A DNA stretch of 33,719 nt from an uncultured Thermoplasmatales archaeon (GCA_964517155.1 CAZFAZ010000034.1:1-33719), one strand, 5' to 3'. Positions 1-21,041 are shown, counted from the first letter of the stretch. Notes: a model not told the origin generated them from the letters alone. A program made the numbers and translations.

Positions 1-99
1 AGTCTAAACAGCGGGATCAGTTGTCCAGACTGCCTGCAGGTAAGACGCATAGTAGAATGCCGTTTAAAACAGAAAGGGGCTTACGGCCTACACCCAGCA
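1..99 (+). ncRNA. rnpB: RNase P RNA, archaeal type A-like, 3' portion (5' part lies outside the window)
   Basis: AGTAGAAT (51-58) matches CR-IV AGNNNNAU. ACAGAAAGGGGCTTA (69-83) matches CR-V ACNNRANNNNGNNUA exactly. Hairpin AGTCT..ACAGC-GGGATCA-GTTGT..AGACT (1-31) fits P16/P17, GGTAA fits L15, and there is no P18 (archaeal). Exact 3' end uncertain. Confidence 0.9.
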
Positions 100-258
100 T
101 AAATTCAGCTACACCCCTTCAACTCGGATTTTTATATCTGTTGTTTGTGCTTGGCTCAAAAGTTAGCCCTAGCCATATTTTTTTACCCATAACCTATTAT
201 TTCATTTTTCCTTTTTTGCTGCTGATTTTTTTTCAACGTTATTACAACACCCTCCACA

Positions 259-372
259 ATTTTATGTAAAAGATGTTGAGGCTATCTTGGTCATGTTTTT
301 GATGACGGGCCATTGCCACCTGGTAAACGTTTTTGTATTAATTCTGTTGATCTTCATTTAAAGAAAAAATAA
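259..372 (+). pseudogene. msrB: 3' remnant of peptide-methionine (R)-S-oxide reductase MsrB with internal stop
   Basis: Manual translation [36 protein letters not shown] matches the MsrB C-terminal signature CxxCxxHLGHVFxDGPxPTGxRYCINS. In-frame TGA at 277-279; N-terminal two-thirds absent. Confidence 0.85.
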
Positions 373-416
373 ATAAAGTTACAGTAATTTAACCAATAAT
401 TATTAAGGTGTAAAAA

Positions 417-770
417 ATGCCACATGTTGTTCTAAACGGAAATGTAAATCTTGATGATATATTCACTAAATTCAGGGGTGTATTGATTCGTAATGAAAAT
501 GGTGTTCTTAAAACTGATAATATTTATATTAGCCGTGATAAAACTTCTATAATTGTAGAGTCATTAGCTATTGAAAAGGATGCTAAAAATAGTTTTTTAG
601 GTATGATCAGCCATAGGGATGATGGCGTGGTTGTAAGGATATATCCTGGAAGTGAAGTTGAAAAAACTGTAGGCGTTAAAAAAATATTATCCGAAATATC
701 AAGACAATTTCTAGAATTATTTCCTCAATTAAAAATTGGAGAAACGAATCTCTTAGAGTATCTAAAATAA
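417..770 (+). CDS. hypothetical protein (117 aa)
   Basis: Clean ORF with AAGGTG SD-like site upstream and globular composition; family not recognised. Confidence 0.75.
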   Translation: MPHVVLNGNVNLDDIFTKFRGVLIRNENGVLKTDNIYISRDKTSIIVESLAIEKDAKNSFLGMISHRDDGVVVRIYPGSEVEKTVGVKKILSEISRQFLELFPQLKIGETNLLEYLK

Positions 771-852
771 CGGGAATTGTTAAACTAAATGCATAAATGA
801 AATATATATAAAAAGTATTCAGTAAGTTGATTAATTAAAGGAGGTTAAAGTT

Positions 853-1770
853 ATGGTTGAGAAAAAAATTCAGTGTCCAAGTTGTAAAAATCAATTTATG
901 GTTAAAGGAAAACCTTCGGAAAAAATATATGTAACCTGCCCAAAATGTAAAACGTATGGGTCGTTTACTTTTCCGGCAGGGAAATGCGATCCAAATAAAG
1001 TAGAATGTTTCTCGGATCTTGGAGATGTCCGTTTCAAGAAATTAAGGATATTTAATGGAATAATGGGAATTATTCATATGATTCAGGGTTTTTTAATGCT
1101 CATACTAAGTAACACATTTGCCCTACCTTTGACATATACTCGCCCTGAATATAATGCAGTTACAGAAACAATTTCGCCCGTATCAGAAACCTTTTTTAAT
1201 ATACAAATTGGGCCACTTGTAGCTCTGTTTCTTTTTATGTCAGCGATAGCTCATATTCTATTGTCTACCGTGTTATATAAATGGTATGTTAAAAACCTTA
1301 AAAAACATATGAATCCTGCCCGATGGTATGAATACTCTTTCAGTGCATCGTTAATGATTTTTATTATCGGTATGCTTGTTACGATATATGATTTTGGGAC
1401 ATTGCTTGCTTTATTTACCCTTACTGCAGTTATGAATCTTATGGGTCTAGTGATGGAGATTCATAATCAAACGACGACAAAAACAAATTGGACATCTTAT
1501 AATATCGGGTGTATAGCTGGTTTTATTCCGTGGGTTGTCATCTTCATTCCGCTTGTAACTGCGGAATCTGTTCCTGATTTTGTTATTGCAATTTTTATTA
1601 CCATCGCAGTGTTTTTCAATTTGTTTGCAATCAATATGTACTTACAGTATAAGAAGATAGGAAAATGGAAAGATTATCTTTATGGTGAACGAATGTATGT
1701 CATTCTGAGTCTCGTTGCAAAATCAGCATTAGCCTGGCAAGTATTTGCAGGAACTTTGCGACCAATGTAG
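853..1770 (+). CDS. heR: heliorhodopsin with N-terminal CxxC-x17-CxxC zinc-ribbon extension
   Basis: HeR motifs: LRIFN..HMIQG (TM1 His), AIAHIL (TM2 His), NPARWYEYSFSASLM (TM3 counterion Glu), YxYGERMYVILSLVAKSALAWQVF (retinal Lys in SLVAK). The first ~60 aa contain CPSC-x17-CPKC. GGAGG SD near 840-845. Confidence 0.95.
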   Translation: MVEKKIQCPSCKNQFMVKGKPSEKIYVTCPKCKTYGSFTFPAGKCDPNKVECFSDLGDVRFKKLRIFNGIMGIIHMIQGFLMLILSNTFALPLTYTRPEYNAVTETISPVSETFFNIQIGPLVALFLFMSAIAHILLSTVLYKWYVKNLKKHMNPARWYEYSFSASLMIFIIGMLVTIYDFGTLLALFTLTAVMNLMGLVMEIHNQTTTKTNWTSYNIGCIAGFIPWVVIFIPLVTAESVPDFVIAIFITIAVFFNLFAINMYLQYKKIGKWKDYLYGERMYVILSLVAKSALAWQVFAGTLRPM

Positions 1771-1816
1771 ATTAAGGAAAAAAACTGCAGACTTTATGAC
1801 GGTGAGTTACAAATCC

Positions 1817-1886
1817 CTTCTCCTTCACTAAAAATTATTTTTCAGTATATGTACTCAGGAATTAACACATATGCTTACACCCAGCA
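1817..1886 (+). repeat. degenerate rnpB-3'-end composite repeat (R1)
   Basis: TACACCCAGCA (1876-1886) is identical to 89-99 and is preceded by GCT. CTTCTCCTTCACTAAAAAT at 1817 resembles the upstream box of R2-R4 at similar spacing (59 nt). Confidence 0.5.
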
Positions 1887-1937
1887 AACTTAAATTTTAT
1901 CACAAATGTTGTTGTATTTTGTAGTTTTTCATCGAAA

Positions 1938-1978
1938 TTTATAAATATTAGTTAATACCATATATTTATTATTTAATA
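1938..1978 (+). promoter_or_regulatory. TATA box followed by two TATTA-NN-TAATA palindromes (putative autoregulatory operator)
   Basis: TTTATAAA at 1938-1945; TATTAGTTAATA at 1946-1957 and TATTATTTAATA at 1967-1978, 21 bp apart. The AT-rich context weakens significance. Confidence 0.4.
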
Positions 1979-1994
1979 ACAATTGGTGATTAAT

Positions 1995-2273
1995 ATGTCA
2001 AAATCAATTCAAGAATATAAGCTTGAACATTCTCCAACTCTTAATACTGTTTTAATGGTAGAAGAAACTTTAAAAAATATGAACGAAAGTGTAATTACTA
2101 TTGCCAAATTAAAAAAGATACTCCCCAAACAAGTAAATCATAATACCTTAAAGATTATCCTTTTATATTTAGAATATAGTAATAAAATCGCAGTGACATT
2201 AAAAGGAATAACTTGGATACATAATACCAATCCACAACTACGTAAAGCAATTTCAAAAGGTCTTGAATTATGA
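1995..2273 (+). CDS. small winged-helix-like protein, putative antitoxin/regulator
   Basis: ATG at 1995 after GGTGA SD (ORF track starts at 1983). HSPTLNTVLMVEETL...LKIILLYLEYSNKI...ITWIHN pattern. Its stop overlaps the next ATG (ATGA, 2270-2273). Confidence 0.65.
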   Translation: MSKSIQEYKLEHSPTLNTVLMVEETLKNMNESVITIAKLKKILPKQVNHNTLKIILLYLEYSNKIAVTLKGITWIHNTNPQLRKAISKGLEL

Positions 2274-2565
2274 AAAAAGTACGAGTTATTCTTTCACCAG
2301 AAGCAGAAAAAGTATATAAGCATCTGAATGAAGAAGCACCCAGATCAAAAACAGATCAAACAATACTTAAAGCGATTAATAAAAAAGTGGAATATATAAA
2401 GACAAATATGGTGTATCAAACTTATTTAGAATAGAACTTCCAAATTATTGGAGAATGCTTTATACATTAACAGACGGTGAAACAAATATTGAGATTATTG
2501 CGTTTGTTCTTGATTTAATAGATCATCCAACTTATAATAAAAAGTTTGGATATAAAACAAAATAA
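2270..2565 (+). pseudogene. frameshifted/internally deleted RelE/ParE-like toxin gene
   Basis: First frame 2270-2434: MKKVRVILSPEAEKVYKHLNEEAPRSKTDQTILKAINKKVEYIK...*. The -1 frame 2395-2565: YKDKYGVSNLFRIELPNYWRMLYTLTDGETNIEIIAFVLDLIDHPTYNKKFGYKTK*. The V-I-L-S-P-E-A start, WRMLY and DH..Y end fit a RelE-like fold. Confidence 0.7.
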
Positions 2566-2582
2566 GCTTAAATTATCTGCCA

Positions 2583-2655
2583 CTTCTGTCTTCAAAAAAT
2601 GTAAAAAATAAGGAGAAAAAGCTGGTCTAAAGGGGCTTACGGCCTACACCCAACA
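2583..2655 (+). repeat. rnpB-3'-end composite repeat (R2): upstream arm + 24-bp perfect rnpB copy
   Basis: AAAGGGGCTTACGGCCTACACCCA at 2629-2652 is identical to 73-96. It is preceded by CTTCTGTCTTCAAAAAATGTAAAAAATAAGGAGAAAAAGCTGGTCT. Confidence 0.92.
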
Positions 2656-2666
2656 ACATTGTTTAA

Positions 2667-4067
2667 CTATAAATTATTAATTGGATGTTTTGCTGGATGC
2701 CAATCAAAGTTTATATATGGTAATCCTGGTATTATTTTTGGAAGAACTCTAGGTCTATTCCAGTAGTTGTTATTCCACCGGTTACTTTTTGAATTCAGTA
2801 ATAATATTTGTAAAATGTTTTTTTGTAGATTATTGTTTTGAAAGATATTGTTATCTGATTGTTTTAATTGTATTGCTATATCGCAATTCTTTATTGTGTT
2901 GTTTTCTATTGTATTATTATAAGAATTGTATAAAAGGTTAAGACCAGTTTTGCTATTAATTATTATATTGTTTAAAATATGATTATCATGTTGATCTGCA
3001 TCAGAAAATGTTGCTATATGGATTCCTATAAAAATATTGTCTTCTAAAGTATTATTATAGAAAAGATTATACGAGCAAGCAGTAACTGCTGAAAGACCAA
3101 ACATATTATCTGCCACATAGTTATTTCTAACGATATTATGATCAGAGTGATAATCAAGACAGGCTCCATGTAAATTATTAATCAATATATTATTTTGAAC
3201 GATGTTATAATCTGAGTTAAAAAGTATGACTTCTCCATCTGTATCTAAAACTGTTATATTTTCTATTGTGCTATTGTCACAATATGCTAATATCACTGAA
3301 AAATCTGTATTTGAAAGATATAAATCTCTAATTGTTATATTTGAACAATTAACAGCAATAACCTGTCCTGCATCAACTGGCACTTCAAAATTATTATTAT
3401 TTTTATAATAATATAATGGTTTCCCATTAACAGTATTATTATTAATATCGTGTAGGAAATCTTGTTTTGTCAAACTAAGTAATTTTTGATATTGGCCAAG
3501 AAGAATTCCATCTCCAATAAATGAATTATTATTAATCGTTGCATTATAACAAGATGCCATAACTGTTAAACCCATAATATTATTTACAAATCTATTTCCC
3601 ATTATCGTTATATTTGAAGCATATATTCTCAACCCTGATAAATCCCAAATTAGATCTTCACTTAGTGCATTTGTAAAAGTAAAACCTTGAATTGTTACAT
3701 CTGATGCAGAAATATTCATACCGTCAAGGGATTTTTTATTAGCATCAATTACTGTGTTATACTTATTTTCGCCAATAATTGACAATCCTTGTGTTTTAAT
3801 TATAATATTTTCTTGGTATAGTCCTGATCTGACAAATATTGTTTCACCAGGAGTTGCATTGTCGATTCCTTCTTGAATTGTTAAGTAATCATCTGGAATT
3901 ATAATATCTGCACTTATAATATTTAGATTTGTTTTTTCATCATTTTTTATTTCAATGATGGATGCAGTACTTGAGGTCAATGAGAATGCAAAGATAAAAA
4001 TTATCAAAATAGATATTGGACTTTTATAAATCCTATTCATATTTATCACATAATTAATATTAAACAT
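2667..4067 (-). CDS. secreted NosD/CASH (parallel beta-helix) domain protein
   Basis: Signal-peptide-like N-terminus (start may be the ATG at 4040), IPDDYLTIQEGIDNA..G.TIFV.SGLYQENI, Asn-rich PbH1 repeats, NTVNGKPLYYY..AGQVIAVNCSN, C-terminal NNYW..DWHPAKHP. Confidence 0.85.
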   Translation of the reverse strand: MFNINYVINMNRIYKSPISILIIFIFAFSLTSSTASIIEIKNDEKTNLNIISADIIIPDDYLTIQEGIDNATPGETIFVRSGLYQENIIIKTQGLSIIGENKYNTVIDANKKSLDGMNISASDVTIQGFTFTNALSEDLIWDLSGLRIYASNITIMGNRFVNNIMGLTVMASCYNATINNNSFIGDGILLGQYQKLLSLTKQDFLHDINNNTVNGKPLYYYKNNNNFEVPVDAGQVIAVNCSNITIRDLYLSNTDFSVILAYCDNSTIENITVLDTDGEVILFNSDYNIVQNNILINNLHGACLDYHSDHNIVRNNYVADNMFGLSAVTACSYNLFYNNTLEDNIFIGIHIATFSDADQHDNHILNNIIINSKTGLNLLYNSYNNTIENNTIKNCDIAIQLKQSDNNIFQNNNLQKNILQILLLNSKSNRWNNNYWNRPRVLPKIIPGLPYINFDWHPAKHPINNL

Positions 4068-4088
4068 AACATATTTATAGTTATGCTG

Positions 4089-4161
4089 CTTCTGTCTTTA
4101 AAAAATTGAAAAAATCTTGTTTTTCTTCTGTTGCAAAAGGGTTTATGGCCTACACCCAACA
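4089..4161 (+). repeat. rnpB-3'-end composite repeat (R3)
   Basis: AAAAGGGTTTATGGCCTACACCCA at 4135-4158 matches 73-96 at 21/24. CTTCTGTCTTTAAAAAA at 4089 has the same 62-nt spacing to TACACCC as in R2. Confidence 0.88.
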
Positions 4162-5490
4162 ATTAATATTATATGGTTTTTCTACAGGATTTTTATCTAA
4201 TAATAAATAGCTTGGAAAATTTATTTTCTTAGGGCTATGAAGATATGAATCATATAGTGATCTTTGCCAACAAATAATGATTTTTGGAAATATTTTTAAT
4301 AGTTTATGATTCAGACCAATCCATTTATTCCAATAGTTGCTATCCCATACTGTATGGCGGCATTTACCCCATACTTTTACTGTTTCTATTCCACTTGAAT
4401 AGATATTATTTTTCGAAAAGACATTCCAATCAGAGTCGTCTAATTGTATACTGAATGCTTTTTTTTCTGCGTTTGGATGAAAAATACTTGAGTGGAAAAT
4501 ATTAGATGTGAATATGTTATATCTTGATTCCTGTTCTATGGTTATCATTGTAAAAGTATTATTTGTAAAATAATTATAATCAGAAAAACTCAGCCACATA
4601 GAACAAGATGTATTTGTAAAAGTGTTATTTCTAAAAATATTATAATTTGCATATTCTGTCCAGAAACCTTGAAGACTTCCGTTAATTTTATTATTTTCAA
4701 CAATGTTATAATCAGAATAAAATAAATGAATAGTATCTGTTACGTTATTTATTACCAGATTCGATATTTTGCAATAACTACAGTTTACAAGTATTACCTG
4801 CCCTGCATTTTTTAAAACATCAACGTGTTTTTTATTTTTAATATAAACTATTGGTTTTCCATTGGCAGTATTAGACGTATCAATATCATGTATGTAATAA
4901 GAAAGATTTGATTTAAAACCATCAAGGTAATCAAGATAATAAATTAGCAAGTTACAATCAAAGAATTGATTATATCTCAAAGTACAATTTGTACTTTCTA
5001 AGATACACATTCCACATATATTTATTGGTTTTTCTGTGTTATGACTATTTATGAAAATATTATCATTTATTATAACATTAGAAGTTTTATTTATCTCAAG
5101 TAATGAATTATACCAATAATCAAATTTATATGTATTATTTTTCAGAGTGAAACCCGTAAATACAACTTCATCAGCATATATTTGAATGCCTTTATAATTT
5201 CCTTGTACATCAATTATAGTTGAATTTTTATCTTCGCCTATTAAATTGATTTTTTTATCAACAATAATATTGTGTTCATAATATGTACCAGTATAGACAT
5301 ATACCGTATCGCCATTAATTGCATTGTCTATTGCATCCTGAATCGTTGTATAATTTTTAGATCCAGTTCCACCCACATATAGTATATTTTCTGATGAATT
5401 TGTTTGTATTTTTTTACTGGAGGCAAAAAAACCGCTAAAACATAAAGATAACATTAAACATATTACCAGCAATGACACGCATTTTTTCAT
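4150..5490 (-). CDS. secreted NosD/CASH (parallel beta-helix) domain protein
   Basis: Signal peptide, ILYVGGTGSKNYTTIQDAIDNA.NGDTVYVY.GTYYE, DTSNTANGKPIVY..AGQVILVNCS, C-terminal SNYW..DKNPVEKPYNI. The stop codon lies inside repeat R3. Confidence 0.87.
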   Translation of the reverse strand: MKKCVSLLVICLMLSLCFSGFFASSKKIQTNSSENILYVGGTGSKNYTTIQDAIDNAINGDTVYVYTGTYYEHNIIVDKKINLIGEDKNSTIIDVQGNYKGIQIYADEVVFTGFTLKNNTYKFDYWYNSLLEINKTSNVIINDNIFINSHNTEKPINICGMCILESTNCTLRYNQFFDCNLLIYYLDYLDGFKSNLSYYIHDIDTSNTANGKPIVYIKNKKHVDVLKNAGQVILVNCSYCKISNLVINNVTDTIHLFYSDYNIVENNKINGSLQGFWTEYANYNIFRNNTFTNTSCSMWLSFSDYNYFTNNTFTMITIEQESRYNIFTSNIFHSSIFHPNAEKKAFSIQLDDSDWNVFSKNNIYSSGIETVKVWGKCRHTVWDSNYWNKWIGLNHKLLKIFPKIIICWQRSLYDSYLHSPKKINFPSYLLLDKNPVEKPYNINCWV

Positions 5491-5578
5491 AGTATAATCA
5501 CAAAAATTTTATAATATATATTTTAGTAGATATTTATTAAGTTTTTCTTTAATGTGGCATTTTAAAAAATAACCTGAG

Positions 5579-5647
5579 CTTCTGTCTTCAAAAATAGTAA
5601 AAAAATAATGAGAAAATGAAGGTCTAATGCTTACGACCTACAACGAG
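5579..5647 (+). repeat. rnpB-3'-end composite repeat (R4)
   Basis: Arm CTTCTGTCTTCAAAAATAGTAAAAAAATAATGAGAAAATGAAGGTCTAA is highly similar to the R2 arm. GCTTACGACCTACAACGAG (5629-5647) matches rnpB 79-97 at 16/19. Confidence 0.85.
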
Positions 5648-5669
5648 AAAAATATTAATTATTTTTTCT

Positions 5670-5864
5670 TTATATCATTGTTACTTCTACTGCTTTTAAA
5701 CCTTTAACTGTGTTTTCTTTATGATATTCAATATTATCTCCTTTATTTAGAAATATCGTCCAAAAAGGAATATCGCTTTTATGAATAAAGATGTCTTTGC
5801 CATCTTCACCTTCTATAAAGCCATAACCTTGTTTAATATCATACCATTTAACTTTTCCTTTCAT
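5670..5864 (-). CDS. csp: cold-shock domain protein
   Basis: MKGKVKWYD..QGYGFI (RNP1) and DIFIHKSDI (RNP2); GAGGT SD upstream. Confidence 0.92.
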   Translation of the reverse strand: MKGKVKWYDIKQGYGFIEGEDGKDIFIHKSDIPFWTIFLNKGDNIEYHKENTVKGLKAVEVTMI

Positions 5865-5921
5865 AATTATATACCTCTTTTGATTAAAAAAACTGTTAAT
5901 TTTTAAAAACTAAAAAATTTC

Positions 5922-6092
5922 TTAAAAAGAATTCTTGCAATTTTTACAAATTTTATCAGATTCTGAATGTTCTTTTTTTATAAAATCATTACAACTATCA
6001 CTTTCAAATACTGGAATCATCTTAGTTTTACATCTAATTATCTTCTTTTTTTTAATTGGTGTTCTGTTGTTTGTTTTTCTTCGCCTATTCAT
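5922..6092 (-). CDS. small basic Cys4 protein (56 aa, below the ORF-track cutoff)
   Basis: Manual translation MNRRRKTNNRTPIKKKKIIRCKTKMIPVFESDSCNDFIKKEHSESDKICKNCKNSF*. GAAGGT SD-like site upstream; co-oriented between two small genes. Confidence 0.6.
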   Translation of the reverse strand: MNRRRKTNNRTPIKKKKIIRCKTKMIPVFESDSCNDFIKKEHSESDKICKNCKNSF

Positions 6093-6292
6093 TTTTAAAT
6101 ACCTTCGTTTATCAGTTTACCGATAAAAAAACAAAATTGATTTCGTAAATTTATCTAAAAAGATACCAAATCTTTAATTTTTTATTTAATTATCACAAGC
6201 ACTACTACTTTTAACCTTATATAGTTTTACCTAAAAAAAGAAATAGAAAGATTTTGTAAAAAAGTTTAAAATTATTCAAACTTTACTTTTTT

Positions 6293-6463
6293 CTAAAATC
6301 TTTTTGGTTTATGCTTTTGATAGCAATCCCTACAATAAACTGGTCTAGTACCATCTGGTTTGAACGGAACTTCGGTTTCTTTTCCACATTCTGCACAAAT
6401 TACTTTGTGCATTTCTCTTGGAGGTCTATTAAAGCCTCCTCTATTTCTATTTTCTCTATACAT
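6293..6463 (-). CDS. CxxC-x17-CxxC zinc-binding domain protein
   Basis: REMHKVICAECGKETEVPFKPDGTRPVYCRDCY is the typical CxxC-x17-CxxC signature, with an RGG-like N-terminus. The ATG at 6463 is preferred over the TTG at 6499. Confidence 0.9.
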   Translation of the reverse strand: MYRENRNRGGFNRPPREMHKVICAECGKETEVPFKPDGTRPVYCRDCYQKHKPKRF

Positions 6464-6550
6464 ATAACTTATTTTCCTTTTTTTGATTTTAACTAACAAT
6501 AGAAGATTAATATTTAATATTATCCTTTAGATTAAGTTTAATTTTTTGCC

Positions 6551-7822
6551 TTATACGCCCTCAGGTACATATGGCTCTTTTTCATAAGATGTTTGCATTT
6601 CTTCTTTTATTACTTCTGCAAGGCGTTTAACGCCTATTTTTATTGTTTCATCATCGCTGTATGAAAAATTTAGTCTCATTGTGTTATAGCTTCCACCTTC
6701 AGGATAAAAAGCATCTCCTACAACATATGCAACTTTTTTTGCAAGAGCTTTTTGAAACATTACATGAGCATTGATATTTTTTGGTAGTGTAAGCCATATA
6801 AACATCCCTCCTTTTGGTACAGTCCATTCAACGCTTTTGGGAAGATATTTTTCTAGATATTGCAGCATTATATCTCTTTTTCTCTTATACATCTCCCTTA
6901 TTTTTTCAACTTGCTTATCAAGATATCCGCCATTTATATATTCATATGCTACATATTGTGAGAATACATTTGTGCACAAGTCTGTTGCTTGTTTTGCCAA
7001 TGTCATTTTTTCACGTACTTCTTTTGATGCAACAACCCATCCTAATCTAAAGCCAGGGGCAAGTATTTTTGAAAAAGTACTAATATAAACTACTCTACCT
7101 TTTTTGTCAAAAGATTTAATTGGAGGTATTTTTTCTCCTTCAAAGATTATATCACTATATGGATCATCCTCTATAATCAAAAAATCATATTCAGAGGCTA
7201 TATCAAGTAGTTCTTTTCTCTGGCTCAAATTTATTGTTTCTCCAGAGGGATTTTGAAATGTTGGAACAGTGTAGATAAATTTTGGGTGTATGCCTGTGCG
7301 TCGTAATCGTTCTAAGTTTCTTCTAAGTGCCTCAGTATCTATACCATTATGGTTCATAGGTATAGATTCGCAGTTTGCTTCATATGCATTAAATGCTTGT
7401 ATGGCGCCAAGATATGCTGGAACATTTGTAAGATATGTATCTCCAGGATCTAAGAAACAAAGAGCCAAAAGTGAAAGTGCTTGTTGTGCACCACTTGTAA
7501 TTATTATATCATGATATTGACAGTCTATTGCTTTATTATTTCTCATTCTATCTGAAAGAGCACCTCGCAAAGATGTTAATCCTTCGGTTGTACCATATTG
7601 TAATGCGTGATGAATATTATTTTGAAAGGTTTTTTCTATACATTCATGGATGATATCCACAGGAAATGCATTAGGGTTGGGAAGACCTCCAGCAAAAGAA
7701 ATCATATCTGGTATTTGAGTAACTTTTAAAAGCTCTCTTATTTCAGAAGTCTTTAACGTTTTAGCTCTTTTTGAAAATAGTCTTTCTATGTTTACAACCA
7801 TTAAAACACCCATCTTTGACAT
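6551..7822 (-). CDS. PLP-dependent class I aminotransferase (aromatic/2-aminoadipate transaminase-like)
   Basis: ISFAGGLP, LQYGTTEG, ITSGAQQAL, PTFQNPSG, IIEDDPY, STFSKILAPGFRLGW (PLP Lys), RLNFS. Confidence 0.92.
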   Translation of the reverse strand: MSKMGVLMVVNIERLFSKRAKTLKTSEIRELLKVTQIPDMISFAGGLPNPNAFPVDIIHECIEKTFQNNIHHALQYGTTEGLTSLRGALSDRMRNNKAIDCQYHDIIITSGAQQALSLLALCFLDPGDTYLTNVPAYLGAIQAFNAYEANCESIPMNHNGIDTEALRRNLERLRRTGIHPKFIYTVPTFQNPSGETINLSQRKELLDIASEYDFLIIEDDPYSDIIFEGEKIPPIKSFDKKGRVVYISTFSKILAPGFRLGWVVASKEVREKMTLAKQATDLCTNVFSQYVAYEYINGGYLDKQVEKIREMYKRKRDIMLQYLEKYLPKSVEWTVPKGGMFIWLTLPKNINAHVMFQKALAKKVAYVVGDAFYPEGGSYNTMRLNFSYSDDETIKIGVKRLAEVIKEEMQTSYEKEPYVPEGV

Positions 7823-7867
7823 AGATAACTGTTTTATAAAACTATTTATTGGAGAAAAATAGTTTTT

Positions 7868-8959
7868 TTACATCCATTTTTTATGTTTAAAATATGTAAT
7901 CATAACAATTACAAGTCCGGCCATCATACATAATGCCATTGGATAACCAAAGTACCATTTCAACTCAGGCATATTAAAAGGACTATACTCTGGATCAAAA
8001 TTCATACCATATACTCCTGCGATAAAAGTAAGAGGAATAAAAATTGCTGCAAATATGGTTAGCACCTTCATAATCTCGTTCATTTTATTGCTAACGCTAC
8101 TCATATACATATCAAGCATACCTGAAATCATATCTCTAAATGTTTCAATGGTATCAATTACTTGAATTGTATGATCATATAAATCACGAAGATAAATATT
8201 AGTTGAAGATTTAATCAATTTCGAGTCTCCTCGCTGCATTCCATTTATTACTTCCCTTATAGGCCAGACTGATCTGCGAAGATGAATCATTTCACGTTTC
8301 AAATTATAAATTTTATGTAAAGTTTTAGGGGTAGGATTTGATACTAAATCCTCTTCCAGATCTTCTACTTTCTCACCTATTTTTTCAAGAATTACAAAAT
8401 AATTATCAACTATTTCATCAATAAGAGAATATGCAAGATAATCAGCCCCCATTTTGCGAATACGCCCTTTGCCGTTTCTAATTCTTTGCCGTACATTGTC
8501 AAAAACATCGCCAATGCTCTCCTGAAAAGAAATAACAAAGTTTTTACCAAGAATTAAGCTAACCTGCTCAGAATGTATTTCATGTTTTTTTTCATCATAT
8601 AACAGCATTTTTAAAACAAAAAAAAGATAATTTTCAAGATCTTCTATTTTAGGACGTTGGTTTGTATTTAAAACATCTTCTAAAACAAGTGGATGTATAT
8701 CAAAGCAACTGCCAATTTTTTCAATTACGCTAACGTCATGTAAACCATCTATATTTATCCAAGAAACTGTAGACCGTTTTTTCAAAGAAAAACAATCTTC
8801 AATTTTTTTTACTTCTTTTTCTTCAAATTTATCTAAATTATAATCAAAAAAAGTAATTTTTATTTTCTCTGTTTTCTTCTCCCCGATATATACAAGGGCA
8901 CCGGGCGGTAGACCGCTTGATTTAGAGCTTTTTCTTGTTGTAAGTTTCATAAAAATCAC
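7868..8959 (-). CDS. corA: magnesium/cobalt transporter CorA
   Basis: GLPPGALVYIG, WINIDGLHD, HPLVLEDVLNTNQRPK, GMN signature (YGMNF), MPELKW. The start may be the ATG at 8950. Confidence 0.95.
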   Translation of the reverse strand: MIFMKLTTRKSSKSSGLPPGALVYIGEKKTEKIKITFFDYNLDKFEEKEVKKIEDCFSLKKRSTVSWINIDGLHDVSVIEKIGSCFDIHPLVLEDVLNTNQRPKIEDLENYLFFVLKMLLYDEKKHEIHSEQVSLILGKNFVISFQESIGDVFDNVRQRIRNGKGRIRKMGADYLAYSLIDEIVDNYFVILEKIGEKVEDLEEDLVSNPTPKTLHKIYNLKREMIHLRRSVWPIREVINGMQRGDSKLIKSSTNIYLRDLYDHTIQVIDTIETFRDMISGMLDMYMSSVSNKMNEIMKVLTIFAAIFIPLTFIAGVYGMNFDPEYSPFNMPELKWYFGYPMALCMMAGLVIVMITYFKHKKWM

Positions 8960-12988: not shown

Positions 12989-13492
12989 GTGAAAAAAATG
13001 ACTATTAAAATTTTGGTAACTGGTGGAACATTTGACAAAGAATACATGGAACTTACTGGGGATTTGATATTTAAAAATACACACATTCATGAAATGCTCA
13101 AACTTGCAAGATGTAAATTAGATATAAAAATACGAACTCTTATGATGATAGATAGTCTTGAGATGACTGAGTATCATAGAAGTATAATACTTGAGAAATG
13201 CAGAAATTCAAAGGAAGATAAAATAGTAATAACACATGGAACAGATACTATGGTAAAAACAGCAAAGATTCTTGGAGAGGCTATAAAAGATAAAACTATA
13301 GTTCTAACAGGTGCACTTGTCCCTTATGCTTTTGGAAGTAGTGATGGACTTTTTAATCTTGGGAGTGCTCTTGCATTTGTACAATCGCTTCCAAATGGAG
13401 TGTATATCGTAATGAATGGAAGATATTTCACTTGTGACAATGTCAAAAAAAACACAATAACTGGAGAATTTGAAGAGATAAACAGCCAATAA
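12989..13492 (+). CDS. short asparaginase (N-terminal catalytic domain only)
   Basis: TGGTFDK and ITHGTDTM carry both catalytic Thr motifs of class 1 asparaginases; IVLTGA; no C-terminal domain. Confidence 0.85.
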   Translation: MKKMTIKILVTGGTFDKEYMELTGDLIFKNTHIHEMLKLARCKLDIKIRTLMMIDSLEMTEYHRSIILEKCRNSKEDKIVITHGTDTMVKTAKILGEAIKDKTIVLTGALVPYAFGSSDGLFNLGSALAFVQSLPNGVYIVMNGRYFTCDNVKKNTITGEFEEINSQ

Positions 13493-13496
13493 TTTT

Positions 13497-14837
13497 TTAA
13501 GTACTATTAAAAGGTTTAATTTTTGCGGGAGGAATTTTTTCAAGAGGCTCGCTGATAATACCAAGGCTTACAAATTTTCCACCTGCTTTTGCAATTATCT
13601 GATTATCTTGTGTAACTCTAAACTTTGCTGCTCGATAATTAAAAAGTCTCTGCAGACTAGCACTAATAATATTATCTTTAAAATATTGTTTGCCTTCAGC
13701 AGTTTTCTGATAGATACGACCTTCTAAATCAATATTAAATTCATTTCCAAGATAATATTGTTCAAGCCACGGATTCTTAGGTTTTAATGCATGAGGTGAA
13801 AAATAACCGATAATTTTATGATTATACATATAACGAAATTGAAGTAGTTTTTCATCAGTGGTTTTACGAGCAAGAAGTATATGAATATCTGCATCATCAG
13901 GTAGGCGAACAGCTCTACCAATACTTTGAATATGATATGCTTCAGTAATAGCAGTTGATACAATAATTAAACATTTAATATTGCGTTTATCATAACCTTC
14001 AGACAGCATGCCTACACTTAAAAGTGCAGATATGCGATCGTTTTGAAAAGCATCAAGTGCTTTTTCATCAGGTTTTTCACTATGATAAGTAGGGATTCCT
14101 GTAATCTTTGAAAGAGTATTTGCTTGGTCAATACGTTTGCATATAACAAGAGTTGGCTTGCCGCTATTTTCTTTCAAGAGTTCTACTGCTTTAGGAATAC
14201 GATTCTCTGCACTGTAAACAAGACTGCGACGTTTAAAAATCATTGAATCAAGTTTTTCACGAAAACTCCATTTCTCTGAATCATTTTCAGCTCGACGCAT
14301 ACGTCCAAGCATTCTGCTAATAACCTCAGAGTATTCTTCATATATTTTGTATTCATCAAGTGTAAGATCGATGCCGTGAAAATAAACTGTGAAATCACTA
14401 ATTTGTGCATCAGCCAAAGGAACATCAATAATTATTCCGCCACAATATTCCAATGATGCTTTGTTTGGAGTTGCAGAAAGACCAAGAATATCATCAAACT
14501 TAATATTCTCATAAATCTTTCTAAAAACAGGGCTAGTGCTGCGATGGCATTCATCAACAACAAAAAGATCACATTTCAAGCCTTTTGATCTATCTTTTGA
14601 AAGAATATGAAATGTTTCAACTGTAATATTATCTACATTATGTTTAACAAGTTCTTTTCTCCACTGATTCCTAAGTTTATTAGTAGGAACACCTATGATT
14701 ACGTTCTTATATCCTCTATCCTTAATAAGTAAAATAGCTCCAAAGGTTTTACCAGTTCCAGCAAATCCTTTAACCACACCAGTGCCTTTGTAAATTCGAA
14801 CAAGACGTTTCTGCCATTCATAAGGTTCAAGCTTCAT
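13497..14837 (-). CDS. superfamily 2 DExH helicase (XPB/Rad25/ResIII-like)
   Basis: PYEWQ (Q motif), AGTGKT (Walker A), VDECH (Walker B), LGLSATP (III), LSEGYD (V), QSIGRAVR (VI). Confidence 0.88.
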   Translation of the reverse strand: MKLEPYEWQKRLVRIYKGTGVVKGFAGTGKTFGAILLIKDRGYKNVIIGVPTNKLRNQWRKELVKHNVDNITVETFHILSKDRSKGLKCDLFVVDECHRSTSPVFRKIYENIKFDDILGLSATPNKASLEYCGGIIIDVPLADAQISDFTVYFHGIDLTLDEYKIYEEYSEVISRMLGRMRRAENDSEKWSFREKLDSMIFKRRSLVYSAENRIPKAVELLKENSGKPTLVICKRIDQANTLSKITGIPTYHSEKPDEKALDAFQNDRISALLSVGMLSEGYDKRNIKCLIIVSTAITEAYHIQSIGRAVRLPDDADIHILLARKTTDEKLLQFRYMYNHKIIGYFSPHALKPKNPWLEQYYLGNEFNIDLEGRIYQKTAEGKQYFKDNIISASLQRLFNYRAAKFRVTQDNQIIAKAGGKFVSLGIISEPLEKIPPAKIKPFNST

Positions 14838-14904
14838 ATATCATCATCTAACAAAGATACTCCCCAACATAAACAAGTAATCCTTAAAATAAGTTGCCAC
14901 TAAC

Positions 14905-16161
14905 TTATGTATATTCAGATAAATATTCCACATTTTTTAAAATACGAGGATCGACAAATCCTTCTAAAGAGATAGGAAACGCTTGGTGTGTGCCAGCAAT
15001 AGAAAAATCACCTTCTATTCTAAGTACGATCCAATCTGGTAAAAGTCTACTTGAACCTGAGAAAAAAAACTTGTAATAAGGTACGTTGATTTCAGTTTGA
15101 ATACAAATTTTATTTTTCGGAGAGATTTGACAGCTATCCATGTTCTCTTGACCTAAAAGTGTTTTTTTCTCGCCGTCTAATCTGTGAATGCTGCAAACTA
15201 AATTATCTGCAACCAAAGGGATATTGCTTGGGTTGTATATTCTGAATCCAATAGTCCCTGAAATTCCTTTTAAAGTTAACTTTAATTGAATCGGTAGACC
15301 AAAATCAATAGTTTCATTATAAAATATGAAATCTTTTATATTTGGTATATCAAAAGATGCATCTGTTGAAAATAAAACTGATTTATTTATGCCTGCAATC
15401 TTTGCACCAGCTGAACCTGAAAGTTTCATCAGAAGTGTTTCTGCATCTAATGCATCATAAAAAATTGTTCCTTTGGATATAAATATTTTCGAACTATTCG
15501 GTTCAATAAAGCTTCTATCTAATTTAATTTGCCCTGCATCTACCTTTTTATCAGTTAAAATATCTAATGTAAGATTATCAATTTTTAATTCAAAGGTAGT
15601 TGGATTATAAATATTGACTGATGTACTAAAGTTCATGCCTTTTTCTGAAAGTTCATCAAAAGAAGAATTGATTTTAATTATAGGTAATTTTAAACTCTCA
15701 AAGATTGTTTCTAAAGAAGAAATAACCGTAACTTTTAGAGGAATAGTTTTTTGTATAAAACCTAAGAATTTTATGCCAATTACAGCATTTACAGTATTTT
15801 TTAAAACTTTAAACTCGTCGCTTTTAAAACTTAGTTTATCGGTTGATTTAAAAGTTTTATTTGTATAAGAATAGATGTTTCCTCCATTTATTTTTATGTT
15901 TCCTATTTCAAGACCCTCTTCAGTTTTACTAGTTACTTTAAGATCTGAAACAATTAACTCAAAACTATTTGGGTTTATAATTTCGATTTTTGTTTCAAGA
16001 ATAAGTTCTTCTGAATTCACATCTAAAATGTTAACATTCATTATTATTTCAGGTGATTCAAATATTTGTATATTTATTATAAGAAAACTTGCAACAATTA
16101 GATTAATTAAAACTAGAATAATCAGAATTATTTTTAGTTTTTTAAGACGTATTTCAAACAT
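14905..16161 (-). CDS. membrane-anchored multi-LEA_2 (WHy) domain protein
   Basis: N-terminal TM, then three repeats carrying the INPN/YNPT/YNPS (NPN-like) motif. The true start is most likely the ATG at 16161, because the longer ORF overlaps the divergent gene. Confidence 0.72.
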   Translation of the reverse strand: MFEIRLKKLKIILIILVLINLIVASFLIINIQIFESPEIIMNVNILDVNSEELILETKIEIINPNSFELIVSDLKVTSKTEEGLEIGNIKINGGNIYSYTNKTFKSTDKLSFKSDEFKVLKNTVNAVIGIKFLGFIQKTIPLKVTVISSLETIFESLKLPIIKINSSFDELSEKGMNFSTSVNIYNPTTFELKIDNLTLDILTDKKVDAGQIKLDRSFIEPNSSKIFISKGTIFYDALDAETLLMKLSGSAGAKIAGINKSVLFSTDASFDIPNIKDFIFYNETIDFGLPIQLKLTLKGISGTIGFRIYNPSNIPLVADNLVCSIHRLDGEKKTLLGQENMDSCQISPKNKICIQTEINVPYYKFFFSGSSRLLPDWIVLRIEGDFSIAGTHQAFPISLEGFVDPRILKNVEYLSEYT

Positions 16162-16252
16162 TTTTTTTATTATTATATAATTTATCACTATAAAAATATA
16201 TTGTGTGCAATAAATTAATAAAATTTCTTTTGTTATACCTATTTGTTTTAAG

Positions 16253-17352: not shown

Positions 17353-18072
17353 ATGATAAGCTTAAATTATTTGATACTTGATTTTTTGATTATATTATTT
17401 CCATTAATTTTTTCATTTAAATGGAAATTTAAATATTATCAGTTTTTCAAACCATTGTTTGCATCTATTGCAGTTGTAGGTATTTCTTATATACTATGGG
17501 ATATAATTGTAACAGCTAGGGGAGATTGGAGTTTTAATAAAGAATTTTTAATTGGTATAGAGATATTCGGCTTGCCTATAGAAGAAATCTTATTTTTTAT
17601 AGTAGTACCATTTGCTTGTATTTTTATTTATGAAAATCTTATGTATTTTATTAAAGATAAAAAAGTTCCTTTTAACAAATGGTTTTATATCTTTTTAGCC
17701 GCACTTTTCATATTAATCGGCTTGGTTTTTAGGAGCCAAGAGTATACCATCCTTGCAATGTTTTCATGTGCATTATTCTTTTTTATTGCATCTACTATTT
17801 TTCCAAATATTTTACAATCAAGAAATTATTGGTTTTACATAATACTTTCATTTATTCCTTTCATTATTTTTAATTATCTTTTAACGTCACTTGTTGTTGT
17901 AGAGTATTCTCCAATTGCTATTTGGGGTGGTGATGGTGCTTGGAATGGAAGATTTCTGACGATACCTATTGAAGATTTTTTTTATAATTTTTCAATGCTT
18001 TCATTTTATCTTATGTTTTATTTGTTTTTTAAGGACAAATGGTCCAGCAAAAAGGTTAAAAGTAAAGCTTAG
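17353..18072 (+). CDS. crtY: membrane lycopene beta-cyclase, fused two-domain (CrtYcd-type)
   Basis: Two hydrophobic halves with WD..G.WSFN..GLPIEEILFF and FNY.LT..IPIEDFFYNF motifs; heads a crt cluster. Confidence 0.85.
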   Translation: MISLNYLILDFLIILFPLIFSFKWKFKYYQFFKPLFASIAVVGISYILWDIIVTARGDWSFNKEFLIGIEIFGLPIEEILFFIVVPFACIFIYENLMYFIKDKKVPFNKWFYIFLAALFILIGLVFRSQEYTILAMFSCALFFFIASTIFPNILQSRNYWFYIILSFIPFIIFNYLLTSLVVVEYSPIAIWGGDGAWNGRFLTIPIEDFFYNFSMLSFYLMFYLFFKDKWSSKKVKSKA

Positions 18073-18098
18073 TTTTATGTTATTTGGGGTAGGTTTTT

Positions 18099-19571
18099 AT
18101 GAATAAAAAGAAAGTAATAATTGTAGGTTCAGGTTTCGGAGGTCTTTCTGCAGCAGCTCTTCTTGCCCGTGATGGTTTTGATGTAATGGTTATTGAAAAA
18201 AATGAACAAGCAGGTGGCCGTGCATCTATCTGGCAAAAAGATGGTTTTACTTTTGATATGGGTCCTTCTTGGTATTTGATGCCTGATGTTTTTGAAAAAT
18301 ATTTCGCAGAATTTGGTAAAAAACCAGAGGATTATATGCAACTTGTTCGTCTTAATCCATCTTATAGAGTTTTTTTTGATAAAAATGATTTTGTAGATAT
18401 TTCTGCAGATATTAACAAAAATCTTGAGTTATTTGAAAAATTAGAGCCGGGTGCTAGTAAAAAGATGAAAGAATATCTTGAATTAAGTGAGTACGAATAT
18501 AATATTGCTATGAAAGATTTTATTTATAAAGACTACAAGCATCTTACAGATTTTTTCAAGCCGCGGCTTATAATTGAAGGCACTAAACTTCATATGTTCC
18601 AAAAACTTGATTCATTTGCACAAAGATTTTTTAAAAGTGAAAAAATCAGAAAAATTTTAGAATATACTATTGTGTTTTTAGGTGGAAGTCCATATGATAG
18701 TCCTGCTTTGTATTCTTTGATGTCTCATGTTGATTTTAACATGGGTGTATGGTTTCCAAAAGGGGGCATGGGACAACTTGTAGAATCTATGCAAAAGTTA
18801 GCAATAGAGCAAGGTGTGAAATTTGTTTTTAATGAGCCTGCCGAAGAAATAATCGTAAAAGATGGAAAAGCTGTAGGTATCAAAACCAATAAATCAAAAT
18901 ATGATGCTGATCTTATTGTGGTAAACGCAGATTATGCATGGGCGGATATAAATCTTTTAGATGAAAAATATAGATCTTATTCTGAAAAATATTGGGAAAA
19001 ACGAAAAATTGCGCCATCTGCATATCTTTTATTTTTAGGTCTTGATAAACAACTTAAAAAGTTTGTTCATCATAATCTGTATTTTCATCCTGATTGGGAA
19101 GGTCATTTTGAAGATATTTTTAAAAATATTTGTTGGCCTGAAAAATTTTCTTATTATGTATCATGTATTTCAAAAACAGATAAAAAATCAGCGATTAAAG
19201 GCGGTGAAAATGTATTTGTCTTAATTCCAGTTGCACCGGGCCTTAAAGATACTGAAAAAACAAGAGAAAAATATTTTGATAAAGTAATCAAACATATGGA
19301 AGAGCTTGCTGGTGAAAATATTAGAGATCATATTGTTGTCAAAAGAATTTTTGCTCATAATGATTTTTCAAGTAGATATAATGCATATAAAGGTACAGCA
19401 CTTGGTCTTGCGCATACTCTGAAGCAAACAGCTATCTTTCGTCCTAAACATGAGAGTAAAAAAGTCAAAAATTTGTTTTATACAGGCCATTATACTCATC
19501 CAGGGATTGGTGTTCCCATGGTTATTATTTCATCCCAGATTCTTAGAGATATAATACATAAGAATAAATGA
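18099..19571 (+). CDS. crtI: phytoene desaturase
   Basis: IVGSGFGGLSAA, EKNEQAGGRA, GFTFDMGPSWYLMP, GTALGLAHTLKQTA.FRP, NLFYTGHYTHPGIGVPM. Confidence 0.93.
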   Translation: MNKKKVIIVGSGFGGLSAAALLARDGFDVMVIEKNEQAGGRASIWQKDGFTFDMGPSWYLMPDVFEKYFAEFGKKPEDYMQLVRLNPSYRVFFDKNDFVDISADINKNLELFEKLEPGASKKMKEYLELSEYEYNIAMKDFIYKDYKHLTDFFKPRLIIEGTKLHMFQKLDSFAQRFFKSEKIRKILEYTIVFLGGSPYDSPALYSLMSHVDFNMGVWFPKGGMGQLVESMQKLAIEQGVKFVFNEPAEEIIVKDGKAVGIKTNKSKYDADLIVVNADYAWADINLLDEKYRSYSEKYWEKRKIAPSAYLLFLGLDKQLKKFVHHNLYFHPDWEGHFEDIFKNICWPEKFSYYVSCISKTDKKSAIKGGENVFVLIPVAPGLKDTEKTREKYFDKVIKHMEELAGENIRDHIVVKRIFAHNDFSSRYNAYKGTALGLAHTLKQTAIFRPKHESKKVKNLFYTGHYTHPGIGVPMVIISSQILRDIIHKNK

Positions 19572-19656
19572 TTTTTTCATCAAAATCTTTTTAAATATGT
19601 CCTTATTAACGGGTGTTAATTAAAAGTATTAAAAAGAAGAAAAAAGGAATCTAAAA

Positions 19657-20541
19657 ATGATAAACAAAACATTTTATTCAATATTTCAACAAGGGAGCAG
19701 AACATATTTTTACAGTAGTCTATTTTTTCCCACATATCTAAAAAAAAATGTTTTTAAACTCTATGGCTTTGTAAGAAAAGCAGACAATTATGTTGATTCT
19801 ATACCACAAAAAATACAAGAATTTTATGACTTTAAAAACAAATATTACAAAGCCCTAGATGGTCAAAAAACAAATGATTTAGTAATAGATTCTTTTGTAG
19901 ATTTGATGCATGAAAAAAATTTTGATACTAAATGGGTTGAAGCATTTTTAGAATCAATGGAAATGGATATTATAAAAACAAGATATGAAACTCTTGATGA
20001 AACAATAAAATACATTTATGGTTCTGCAGAAGTAATAGGTCTTATGATGGCAAAGCTTATGAATCTTCCAAATGAATCATTAAAACATGCAAGATATCTA
20101 GGGAGAGCTATGCAATATATAAATTTCATAAGAGACATTTCAGAAGATATTTTATTTGGAAGGATATATTTTCCATTAGAAGAACTTCAAAAACATAATC
20201 TTAAAAATTTAGATTATGAAACAGTAATTAATCAAAAAGATAATTTTTCAAATTTTATTGATGAACAACTTAAAAGATATTTCAACTGGCAAAATTATGC
20301 AGAAAAAGGCTATATTTACATACCAAAAAGATATTTAATACCTGTAAAAACAGCATCTGAAATGTATAATTGGACTGCAAAACAGATAAAAGCATATCCA
20401 TTTACAATTTACAGTCATAAAGTAAAACCTATGATAATAAAAATAATTACAACAACATTTCTAAATGTAATAGATCCTAAAAGAGGAGTTAATCATATGC
20501 CACTTGTTTGCAGTAATGTAAAACAAATTGTTGACAACTAA
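19657..20541 (+). CDS. crtB: phytoene synthase
   Basis: GSRTYFYSS.FFP, LYGFVRKADNYVD, YIYGSAEVIGLM, LGRAMQYINFIRDISED..GRIYFP. Confidence 0.93.
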   Translation: MINKTFYSIFQQGSRTYFYSSLFFPTYLKKNVFKLYGFVRKADNYVDSIPQKIQEFYDFKNKYYKALDGQKTNDLVIDSFVDLMHEKNFDTKWVEAFLESMEMDIIKTRYETLDETIKYIYGSAEVIGLMMAKLMNLPNESLKHARYLGRAMQYINFIRDISEDILFGRIYFPLEELQKHNLKNLDYETVINQKDNFSNFIDEQLKRYFNWQNYAEKGYIYIPKRYLIPVKTASEMYNWTAKQIKAYPFTIYSHKVKPMIIKIITTTFLNVIDPKRGVNHMPLVCSNVKQIVDN

Positions 20542-20579
20542 TTTAAAGTAAAAAATTATTCGTATCAATCAGGAGAAAT

Positions 20580-21041
20580 TTGAAAATGGATGAAATAACG
20601 ATTTTATCATATTTGATAATAGTATTTATAACATTTTTATTTATGGAGTTTGTAGCCTGGTTTCTTCATAAATATGTAATGCATGGAATTGGATGGTATT
20701 TACATGAAGATCATCACAGATATTCAAAGAGAAAAATTGAAAAAAATGATATATTTGGTTTGTTTTTCAGCATAATATCCTTTTTATTCATATTTACTGG
20801 TTTTTTAGATGGTTATGATATAAAATTTGCTTTTGGAATAGGTATAATGATATATGGCTTAGGTTACTTTTTAGTTCATGATATTTTCTTTCATCACAGA
20901 ATTAAAATTAAATATAGGCCTAAAAGCAAATATGTGAAAAGAGTTCTAAATGCTCATGCTGTTCATCACCAGAAAAGCAAAGCCCATGAGGGCATATGCT
21001 TTGGATTTTTATATGCAAGTAAAAAATACAAAGTAGTCTAA
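20580..21041 (+). CDS. crtZ: beta-carotene 3-hydroxylase
   Basis: MEFVAWFLHKYVMHG.GWYLHEDHH, EKND.F, YFLVHD.FFHHR and AHAVHH His boxes. Confidence 0.92.
   Translation: MKMDEITILSYLIIVFITFLFMEFVAWFLHKYVMHGIGWYLHEDHHRYSKRKIEKNDIFGLFFSIISFLFIFTGFLDGYDIKFAFGIGIMIYGLGYFLVHDIFFHHRIKIKYRPKSKYVKRVLNAHAVHHQKSKAHEGICFGFLYASKKYKVV

Follow-up and report, generated by a model that had tools for sequence, protein, structure and literature searches.

An N-terminal zinc ribbon on a Thermoplasmatales heliorhodopsin encoded near the RNase P RNA gene, and its occurrence on other proteins of the order

An intact heliorhodopsin gene with an in-frame zinc ribbon

The stretch of DNA analysed here (the window) is the whole contig CAZFAZ010000034.1 of an uncultured Thermoplasmatales archaeon (GCA_964517155.1), 33,719 nucleotides (nt) long, and our subject is a gene near its left end that encodes a heliorhodopsin (HeR) with an N-terminal zinc ribbon, the architecture called Znf-HeR. 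The gene is a single intact frame at 853..1770 on the plus strand, of 305 amino acids (aa) plus a stop codon, and is the only HeR gene in the 1.59-Mb assembly, which is 90.8% complete. To its left the contig begins inside the RNase P RNA gene, rnpB, whose 3′ part was found at 1-95 by an E-value threshold (58 bits), a score below the Rfam gathering score because the contig end cuts the gene. This archaeal RNase P RNA and the ELP3 encoded in the window agree with a Thermoplasmatales-type archaeal host.

The rhodopsin matches its family over the full profile. Pfam Heliorhodopsin (PF18761) aligns to residues 64-302 with E=1.3e-94 and 316.5 bits against a cut-off of 26.7, covering profile positions 1-242 of 242, and NCBIfam HeR (NF038020) scores 343.1 bits against a cut-off of 100, so that the intact HeR called in an initial annotation of this DNA stands far above both thresholds. 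The residues on which that call had relied are all present: Lys290 in SLVAK, in heliorhodopsins the Schiff-base lysine of the seventh transmembrane helix (TM7), Glu160 in RWYEYS, the counterion in TM3, and His75 and His134 of TM1 and TM2, all of them invariant in a 71-sequence HeR alignment. With this alignment AlphaFold2 (AF2) gave a model of mean pLDDT (predicted local distance difference test) 89, superseding an earlier, poor run on a shallow 14-sequence alignment (pLDDT 59.8), and the model shows seven helices and the long beta-hairpin typical of heliorhodopsins. Its top Foldseek match is TaHeR, a heliorhodopsin from a Thermoplasmatales archaeon (6is6; template-modelling score 0.98, root-mean-square deviation 0.9, 76% identity), and over the TaHeR entries PDB 6is6, 7clj and 7u55 it superposes at template-modelling scores of 0.96-0.98, with 75-77% identity over residues 58-305. 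In TaHeR, unlike the protein here, only ~11 residues precede the point where TM1 starts with the conserved R-F-x-K/R-F/L-R, and the alignment begins at TaHeR residue 12; since TaHeR aligns to residues 58-305 only, the crystallised protein is naturally without a ribbon. From family membership we infer that the protein has the inverted topology, with the N-terminus inside, and binds retinal, and a presumed Cys4 zinc site fits an N-terminus in the cytoplasm.

The CPSC-x17-CPKC ribbon (Cys8/Cys11 and Cys29/Cys32) is fused in frame to the HeR and is followed by two further cysteines, Cys45 and Cys52, in GKCDPNKVECF. These motifs were found just as first annotated, as was the strong Shine-Dalgarno (SD) sequence at the upstream ATG, a GGAGG 8 nt before the start codon. 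AF2 places four short strands within ribbon residues 2-39 (pLDDT 78-86) and gives low confidence to residues 41-58 of the connecting segment (pLDDT 52-63). The comparison with ribbon family profiles, which the initial annotation had suggested, came out divided: the isolated 67 N-terminal residues pass MJ0042_CXXC (25.4 bits, cut-off 20.9), whereas the whole protein stays below the cut-offs of both MJ0042_CXXC (20.2 bits) and Zn_ribbon_4 (18 bits, cut-off 30.3). Across a set of 13 ribbons at E<=0.01, MJ0042_CXXC was matched by all 13 and Zn_ribbon_4 by 10 (18-20 bits).

Table 1. Features of the window, with positions counted from its first nucleotide (ORF, open reading frame)
Feature	Position	Strand	Basis
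3′ part of archaeal RNase P RNA gene, cut by contig start; rest on contig C51 (82-nt overlap, 100% identity)	1..95	+	Rfam model, contig overlap
rnpB 3′ end segment, left copy	74..100	+	repeat comparison
117-aa ORF between rnpB and HeR gene; no family match	417..770	+	only this genome among 41 relatives
GGAGG ribosome-binding site, 8 nt 5′ of ATG at 853	840..844	+	sequence
Znf-HeR gene, 305 aa plus stop	853..1770	+	ORF, Pfam and NCBIfam matches
Zinc ribbon, residues 1-40, four predicted strands; Cys8/Cys11 at 874-885, Cys29/Cys32 at 937-948	853..972	+	sequence, AF2, MJ0042_CXXC, homologues
Conserved ribbon-to-TM1 segment, residues 41-63; Cys45 at 985-987, Cys52 at 1006-1008	973..1041	+	AF2, 93 homologues, codon comparison
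Seven-helix heliorhodopsin domain, residues 64-305; His75 at 1075-1077, His134 at 1252-1254, Glu160 at 1330-1332, Lys290 at 1720-1722	1042..1767	+	profiles, alignment, AF2, Foldseek
Direct repeat of rnpB 3′ end; 26/27 against 74-100, 27/27 against rnpB 3′ end of same-genus genome G002	2629..2655	+	repeat comparison
Third, more diverged rnpB 3′ end copy	4137..4162	+	repeat comparison
Fourth, degenerate rnpB 3′ end copy, just before synteny with metagenomic relative L136 resumes	5628..5647	+	repeat comparison
Carotenoid cluster: lycopene cyclase, phytoene desaturase, phytoene synthase, FA_hydroxylase-type gene; 15.6 kb from HeR	17353..21041	+	family matches

Conservation and distribution of ribbon-bearing heliorhodopsins

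Homologues were pooled from genome and metagenome collections. The pool comprised 173 HeR loci, from which 12 frames without the TM1 anchor pattern and three cut N-termini were dropped, and yielded 143 distinct HeRs with a readable N-terminus, 93 of them with the ribbon and 50 without. The metagenome scan gave 526 candidate stretches, of which 485 encode a relative, and the best 80 were kept. All 93 ribbon-bearing sequences keep the CxxC-x17-CxxC spacing, and the conservation of these cysteines in homologues, on which the initial annotation had made its proposal depend, therefore holds. Proline follows the first Cys of both knuckles in 91 of the 93, and the second CxxC lies exactly 34 residues from the F-N anchor of TM1 in 85. 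Nearly all genome-derived Znf-HeRs share the same M-x-x-x-K/x-I-x-C start position and are 304-311 aa long. Compared with ten relatives, in pairs that share one query and so are not independent, synonymous changes make up 47% of the changed codons in the ribbon, 64% of those in residues 41-63 and 80% of those in the HeR domain. The ribbon is thus coding and constrained, yet less so than the rest of the protein.

HeR genes are present in 15 of 41 related genomes, this genome counted. A quick maximum-likelihood tree was built from 82 distinct HeR domains. Its 37 rows with a ribbon are without exception archaeal; the ribbon was seen in none of the 25 bacterial rows and not in the haloarchaeal row. 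The ribbon label requires at least five changes on this tree, three of them forced by well-supported branches, and one apparent loss (locus L045) is a mere contig edge. Three stretches in a viral collection encode a HeR relative. A search for shorter proteins that might represent a standalone or split ribbon gene returned only three, of 73-142 aa, which resemble cut-off HeR N-termini and two of which carry the HeR Pfam domain.

The two extra cysteines are not a fixed pair; there are two alternative pairs that share a nearly constant Cys52. The combination C52+C60 occurs in 46 of the 93 Znf-HeRs and C45+C52, as here, in 32, with the remainder having only position 52 (7), only position 45 (2), none (3) or other patterns (3). 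Exactly two linker cysteines are present in 80 sequences (the 78 with either pair and two near variants), and the equivalent of Cys52 is kept in all but one of these. Since the pair types follow clades, with six state changes needed over 36 genome-derived rows, the covariation of the cysteines rests on few independent events.

The same ribbon heads other proteins of the order

A profile built from the 13 HeR ribbons was searched against 1.84 billion representatives and gave at least 150 matches at E<=1e-3, and 29 at E<=1e-10. We scanned 145 of the 150 listed matches (one already known and four long proteins were left out) for what stands behind the ribbon, which was directly an ABC_tran domain in 21 and a T2SSE ATPase in one; three are themselves HeR fragments, and several others are polytopic membrane proteins without assigned function or proteins with multiple ribbons. 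In this genome, three more N-terminal ribbons with the x17 spacing head a 355-aa DrrA-type ATP-binding cassette (ABC) ATPase, a second ABC ATPase and a T2SSE/FlaI-type ATPase.

Among the 41 genomes the profile matches 35, including all 34 other genomes of the same order, namely the 24 others of the family and the 10 that belong to two sister families, with 1-9 copies per genome; it matches none of the six genomes from other families of the class. The ribbon also occurs in genomes without any HeR match. In 13 of 21 loci the best carrier other than a HeR is a protein of ~340-365 residues with a Walker A motif, and carriers of this length align end to end with the ribbon-tagged ABC ATPase of the present genome. 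In this Thermoplasmata order the ribbon is a movable tag at the N-terminus, borne mainly by predicted ABC ATPases (of ABC exporters). Because it tags these ATPases even in genomes in which no HeR was found, the rhodopsin has borrowed a pre-existing general module and not a light-specific output domain, which weakens the suggestion, made in the initial annotation, that the ribbon is a built-in transducer.

The ribbon-headed FlaI/T2SSE-type ATPase lies at 23264-24889 on contig C52 of the window's genome (L016), and one is also present at locus L126. At the right end of the window, an ABC ATPase on the minus strand (33027-33719) has its N-terminus cut by the contig end, and the region where a ribbon would lie is missing from the sequence.

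Published precedents

The architecture is already known. Bulzu et al. 2021 (mSphere 6:e00661-21, PMC8612252) describe six Thermoplasmatales HeRs with an N-terminal zinc_ribbon_4-like extension, recognised by HHpred and written 'CxxC-17x-CxxC', name them Znf-HeR (N-terminal variant ntv1) and list carotenoid genes, photolyase and UvdE as neighbours; Cho et al. 2022 (PMC9529153) repeat the description. These are the fusions in Thermoplasmata that the initial annotation had correctly mentioned. As far as the account in Bulzu et al. goes, the protein here has the same ribbon, host type and carotenoid genes in the region and differs in nothing of kind, with 93 distinct sequences now compared to their six. 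No experimental work on a Znf-HeR was found in the literature searched, which mostly did not cover subscription journals. As a discovery the gene is ordinary, the fusion having been published in 2021. What is added is incremental and at the level of sequence: the size of the family, the 34-residue segment, the alternative cysteine pairs, the order-wide tag, TaHeR as a natural ribbon-less control and the rnpB hot spot described below.

The other published N-terminal cytoplasmic HeR fusion, MORN-HeR, is read by Bulzu et al. as a docking or oligomerisation module, and differs by its MORN repeats and its haloalkaliphilic Firmicutes hosts. Outside the rhodopsins, the N-terminal zinc ribbons (ZnR) of the membrane proteins GltJ (Myxococcus) and ZitP (Caulobacter) are described as protein-docking modules, and that of GltJ also binds its own linker as a switch (PMC11135422). 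As reported there, they share with the Znf-HeR a C4 ribbon, ~40 residues long, that forms the cytoplasmic N-terminal end of a membrane protein and is followed by a linker; they are bacterial and of CxxC-x19-CxxC type (C5, C8, C28, C31), and the likeness is one of architecture. Their partners MglB and PopZ are not expected in archaea. Heliorhodopsins themselves have been reported to bind and modulate glutamine synthetase (PMC9529153) and to partner the ABC transporter OmrDE (PMC11109279) and a photolyase (PMC9769723); according to these accounts, all three act by protein contact on the cytoplasmic side and carry no ribbon. Cho et al. (PMC9529153) report having looked for a ribbon upstream of AbHeR and found none.

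Possible function of the ribbon

With middling confidence, we read the ribbon as a protein-docking module that a retinal-binding, non-pumping sensory HeR carries on a tether at the inner face of the membrane. The cytoplasmic N-terminus would carry an MJ0042-type C4 ribbon (residues 1-40) on a length-constrained, usually two-Cys segment (41-63) that leads into TM1, light would shift the loops together with TM1's cytoplasmic end and thereby alter the presentation of ribbon and segment, and the altered presentation would in turn modulate the binding of a putative partner. We favour docking because the tag is found on several membrane-linked machines, the length of the segment is constrained and the confidence of its predicted fold is low; the last two would fit a segment that folds only on a partner or on a metal. 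The resemblance to GltJ and ZitP lends this reading some support, as an analogy of architecture.

Several observations weigh against it. No partner of the ribbon was found; a complex prediction of the HeR ribbon with the ribbon-tagged ABC ATPase of the same genome, run without controls, scored 0.00 and counts neither for nor against docking. A tagged ABC ATPase stands beside a Znf-HeR in only one of 100 ribbon-HeR loci (L037, 0.9 kb upstream). No other part of the protein is under as little constraint as the ribbon, and its presence on soluble ATPases as well as on a rhodopsin may point away from signalling to something generic, for instance proximity to the membrane, folding or the stability of oligomers. 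Within the same family there are HeRs, TaHeR among them, that have no ribbon, which makes it an accessory that is dispensable for basic HeR function. The photolyase and UvdE families, described by Bulzu et al. as Znf-HeR neighbours, were not found in this 90.8%-complete genome in searches that detected their positive controls; photolyase, a published class of HeR partner, and UvdE flank the Znf-HeR of the same-genus genome G002 but not the one here.

One alternative is a structural or assembly aid, in which a fast-folding ribbon would keep the N-terminus cytoplasmic or lend stability to the protein or its oligomer at the membrane, and no signalling would be involved. We consider this rather unlikely, although it would agree with the ribbon-less relatives, with the basic character of the ribbon (9 K+R against 2 D+E in residues 1-44) and with the observation that the tag carriers (HeR, ABC ATPases and the FlaI-like ATPase) are all oligomers at the inner membrane face; Bulzu et al. 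(PMC8612252) also proposed dimer stabilisation for the MORN fusion. A topology anchor, however, would be needless on soluble ABC ATPases, and a 34-residue segment of fixed length in which a Cys pair recurs points to a role beyond passive anchoring. Solved HeR dimers make contact through helices remote from TM1, and given such an interface two ribbons would need long tethers to meet. The Cys pair could alternatively belong to a redox or metal switch, in which oxidative stress induced by light would oxidise ribbon or linker cysteines, or make them exchange metal, and so alter the output of the HeR. Such a switch would account for exactly two linker cysteines in most Znf-HeRs, where the aligned ABC-ATPase ribbons have no comparable pair, and Bulzu et al. 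(PMC8612252) both tie HeRs to oxidative-stress genes and cite a report that TaHeR and 48C12 bind zinc at their cytoplasmic face. We nonetheless judge it improbable: three Znf-HeRs have no extra cysteine and nine have one, the pair types are clade-bound, the organisms are sediment archaea, and no redox partner is encoded nearby in the window.

A further alternative is a membrane-tethered nucleic-acid binder, whose net positively charged ribbon would bind DNA or RNA and so give the rhodopsin direct control of gene expression. Binding to nucleic acids is common among zinc ribbons. The same point is made in Bulzu et al. (PMC8612252), and some homologues of the tag match the ribbon of the Brz transcription regulator weakly, below threshold. 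The window's own ribbon, however, gives no Brz match at E<=0.01, and the ribbon profile has no significant match among solved structures, nucleic-acid-binding ribbons included (best E 0.022). DNA binding would also be unlikely for the main carriers, transporter and secretion ATPases, and we regard this alternative as very improbable. It is hardly conceivable that the ribbon is an annotation artefact, with translation starting downstream and the ribbon lying outside the protein. The sequencing runs that matched were two near-identical DNA runs, which may be the source itself, and one RNA run (0.07 share of words), whose contigs reach only 1270-1796, at 85-97% likeness, leave the ribbon uncovered and are uninformative on transcription or start. 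Against an artefact stand the SD before codon 1, an in-frame TAA at 832 upstream of the ATG, the excess of synonymous changes, and a frame and cysteines kept in 93 distinct sequences, the genome-derived ones of nearly uniform start and length. Moreover, no ATG, GTG or TTG occurs between codons 17 and 70, so that an intact TM1 cannot be translated without the second CxxC.

A bolder form of the docking reading is a long shot. The ribbon and the 34-residue two-Cys segment would here form a GltJ-type docking switch, gated by light, redox or both and shared with the tagged ABC exporters and the FlaI-like ATPase, its gene having arrived on an rnpB island. In the dark the ribbon would be held on its own segment or on the rhodopsin's cytoplasmic face, and illumination would release it to engage a putative hub used by the tagged exporters and the FlaI-like ATPase. 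If this were true, one photoreceptor would tune a whole set of tagged membrane machines.

The signal output of heliorhodopsins is still largely open, and a built-in domain on the cytoplasmic side offers the most immediate access to it. Since TaHeR is 76% identical, has a solved structure and is naturally ribbon-less, a clean comparison is available. And since the ribbon is common to ABC exporters and a secretion-type ATPase, the useful question shifts from the action of the rhodopsin's own ribbon to what the membrane-machine tag of the order binds.

The rnpB flank and the question of mobility

The initial annotation had also seen a route for mobility in the position of the HeR gene within an rnpB-anchored block. 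The end of rnpB is present in four copies (1-100, 2583-2656, 4089-4162 and 5579-5647), all but the first preceded by the 26-nt motif CTTCTGTCTTCAAAAA, which in the same-genus genome directly follows rnpB. The copies resemble accumulated scars of former integrations or duplications at a hot spot formed by rnpB, and the identity of 2629-2655 with the rnpB end of G002, a genome of the same genus, is the pattern to be expected of an incoming element that brought a new rnpB end with it and displaced the old one downstream. Directly 3′ of rnpB, G002 has a Phage_integrase ORF (L130, G002:C99 190-756; E=1.4e-14), and the gene on the other side of rnpB is syntenic with contig C51. On a metagenome contig (L204), an integrase-like ORF (3-689, by sequence likeness only), rnpB and a Znf-HeR stand in a row, at L058 rnpB is followed at a distance of 950 nt by a plain HeR, and at L164 and L136 a fragment of the rnpB end follows the HeR gene. 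In this Thermoplasmata family, rnpB seems to be an integration target. The HeR tree, moreover, conflicts with the genus assignment: an approximately unbiased (AU) test rejects a clade of the HeRs of this genome and G002 (p=0.0002), a group that was named after the tree was seen and for which paralogue sorting is an alternative.

An element that carried the HeR is made less probable by three findings. No integrase or recombinase family was found among the ORFs of 1-6600. Nine Znf-HeR loci of relatives have no rnpB within 8 kb. The closest metagenomic relative, L136 (93% identical), has its HeR directly beside a homologue of window position 5669 onward, from which it follows that the window-specific insert is 1820-5669, with NosD-like paralogues and repeats. 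Of the mobility proposed at first, the rnpB-end repeats, the tyrosine recombinases of relatives and the tree conflict thus speak for it, and the missing integrase and the L136 synteny speak against it. We read the 3′ flank of rnpB as a recombination hot spot in the family, within which the HeR sits, and the window's copy as at most part of a decayed island.

The insert holds two tandem paralogous NosD/beta-helix proteins with signal-like N-termini, in ~1.5-kb units that include the repeats (2667-4067 and 4150-5490, both on the minus strand), and two small overlapping ORFs after the HeR gene (1983-2434; 96 and 54 aa, ATGA overlap) without a family match. Homologues of the 117-aa ORF on the other side of the HeR gene occur at 65-68% identity on three metagenome contigs, and no relative of it was found in the viral collection. 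Against PHROGs, the three small ORFs of the block gave one weak match, to a family of unknown function.

Light-related genes and other neighbours

Beyond the carotenoid cluster (Table 1), beta-carotene dioxygenase (PF15461) has no match in the genome, in a search whose control was equally silent in every genome and which is therefore uninformative. The HeR of G002 lies elsewhere than at rnpB, 32 nt after a photolyase gene on the same strand, in a cluster of UvdE, photolyase and carotenoid genes. In this compact light cluster of the same-genus genome (L041), SOUL, DUF523/DUF1722, UvdE, PNPOx-like and photolyase genes precede the Znf-HeR (3391-8915), and crtZ-like, crtB, crtI and lycopene cyclase genes (13143-16822) lie 4 kb beyond it.

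In the neighbourhoods of 39 loci, a protein of ~215 aa without a Pfam family stands beside 14 of 28 Znf-HeR loci and 0 of 11 plain HeR loci. It has an AHVPY(L/I)EH motif and is mostly divergent to the Znf-HeR (for example L021 561-1241, minus strand). As a candidate partner of the ribbon it was rejected, since its signal-like N-terminus makes it a secreted, extracellular protein and it is absent from this genome. Farther along the window, a Polbeta/NTP_transf_2 nucleotidyltransferase gene and a HEPN gene overlap at 27282-27978, in the usual arrangement of HEPN-MNT toxin-antitoxin pairs.

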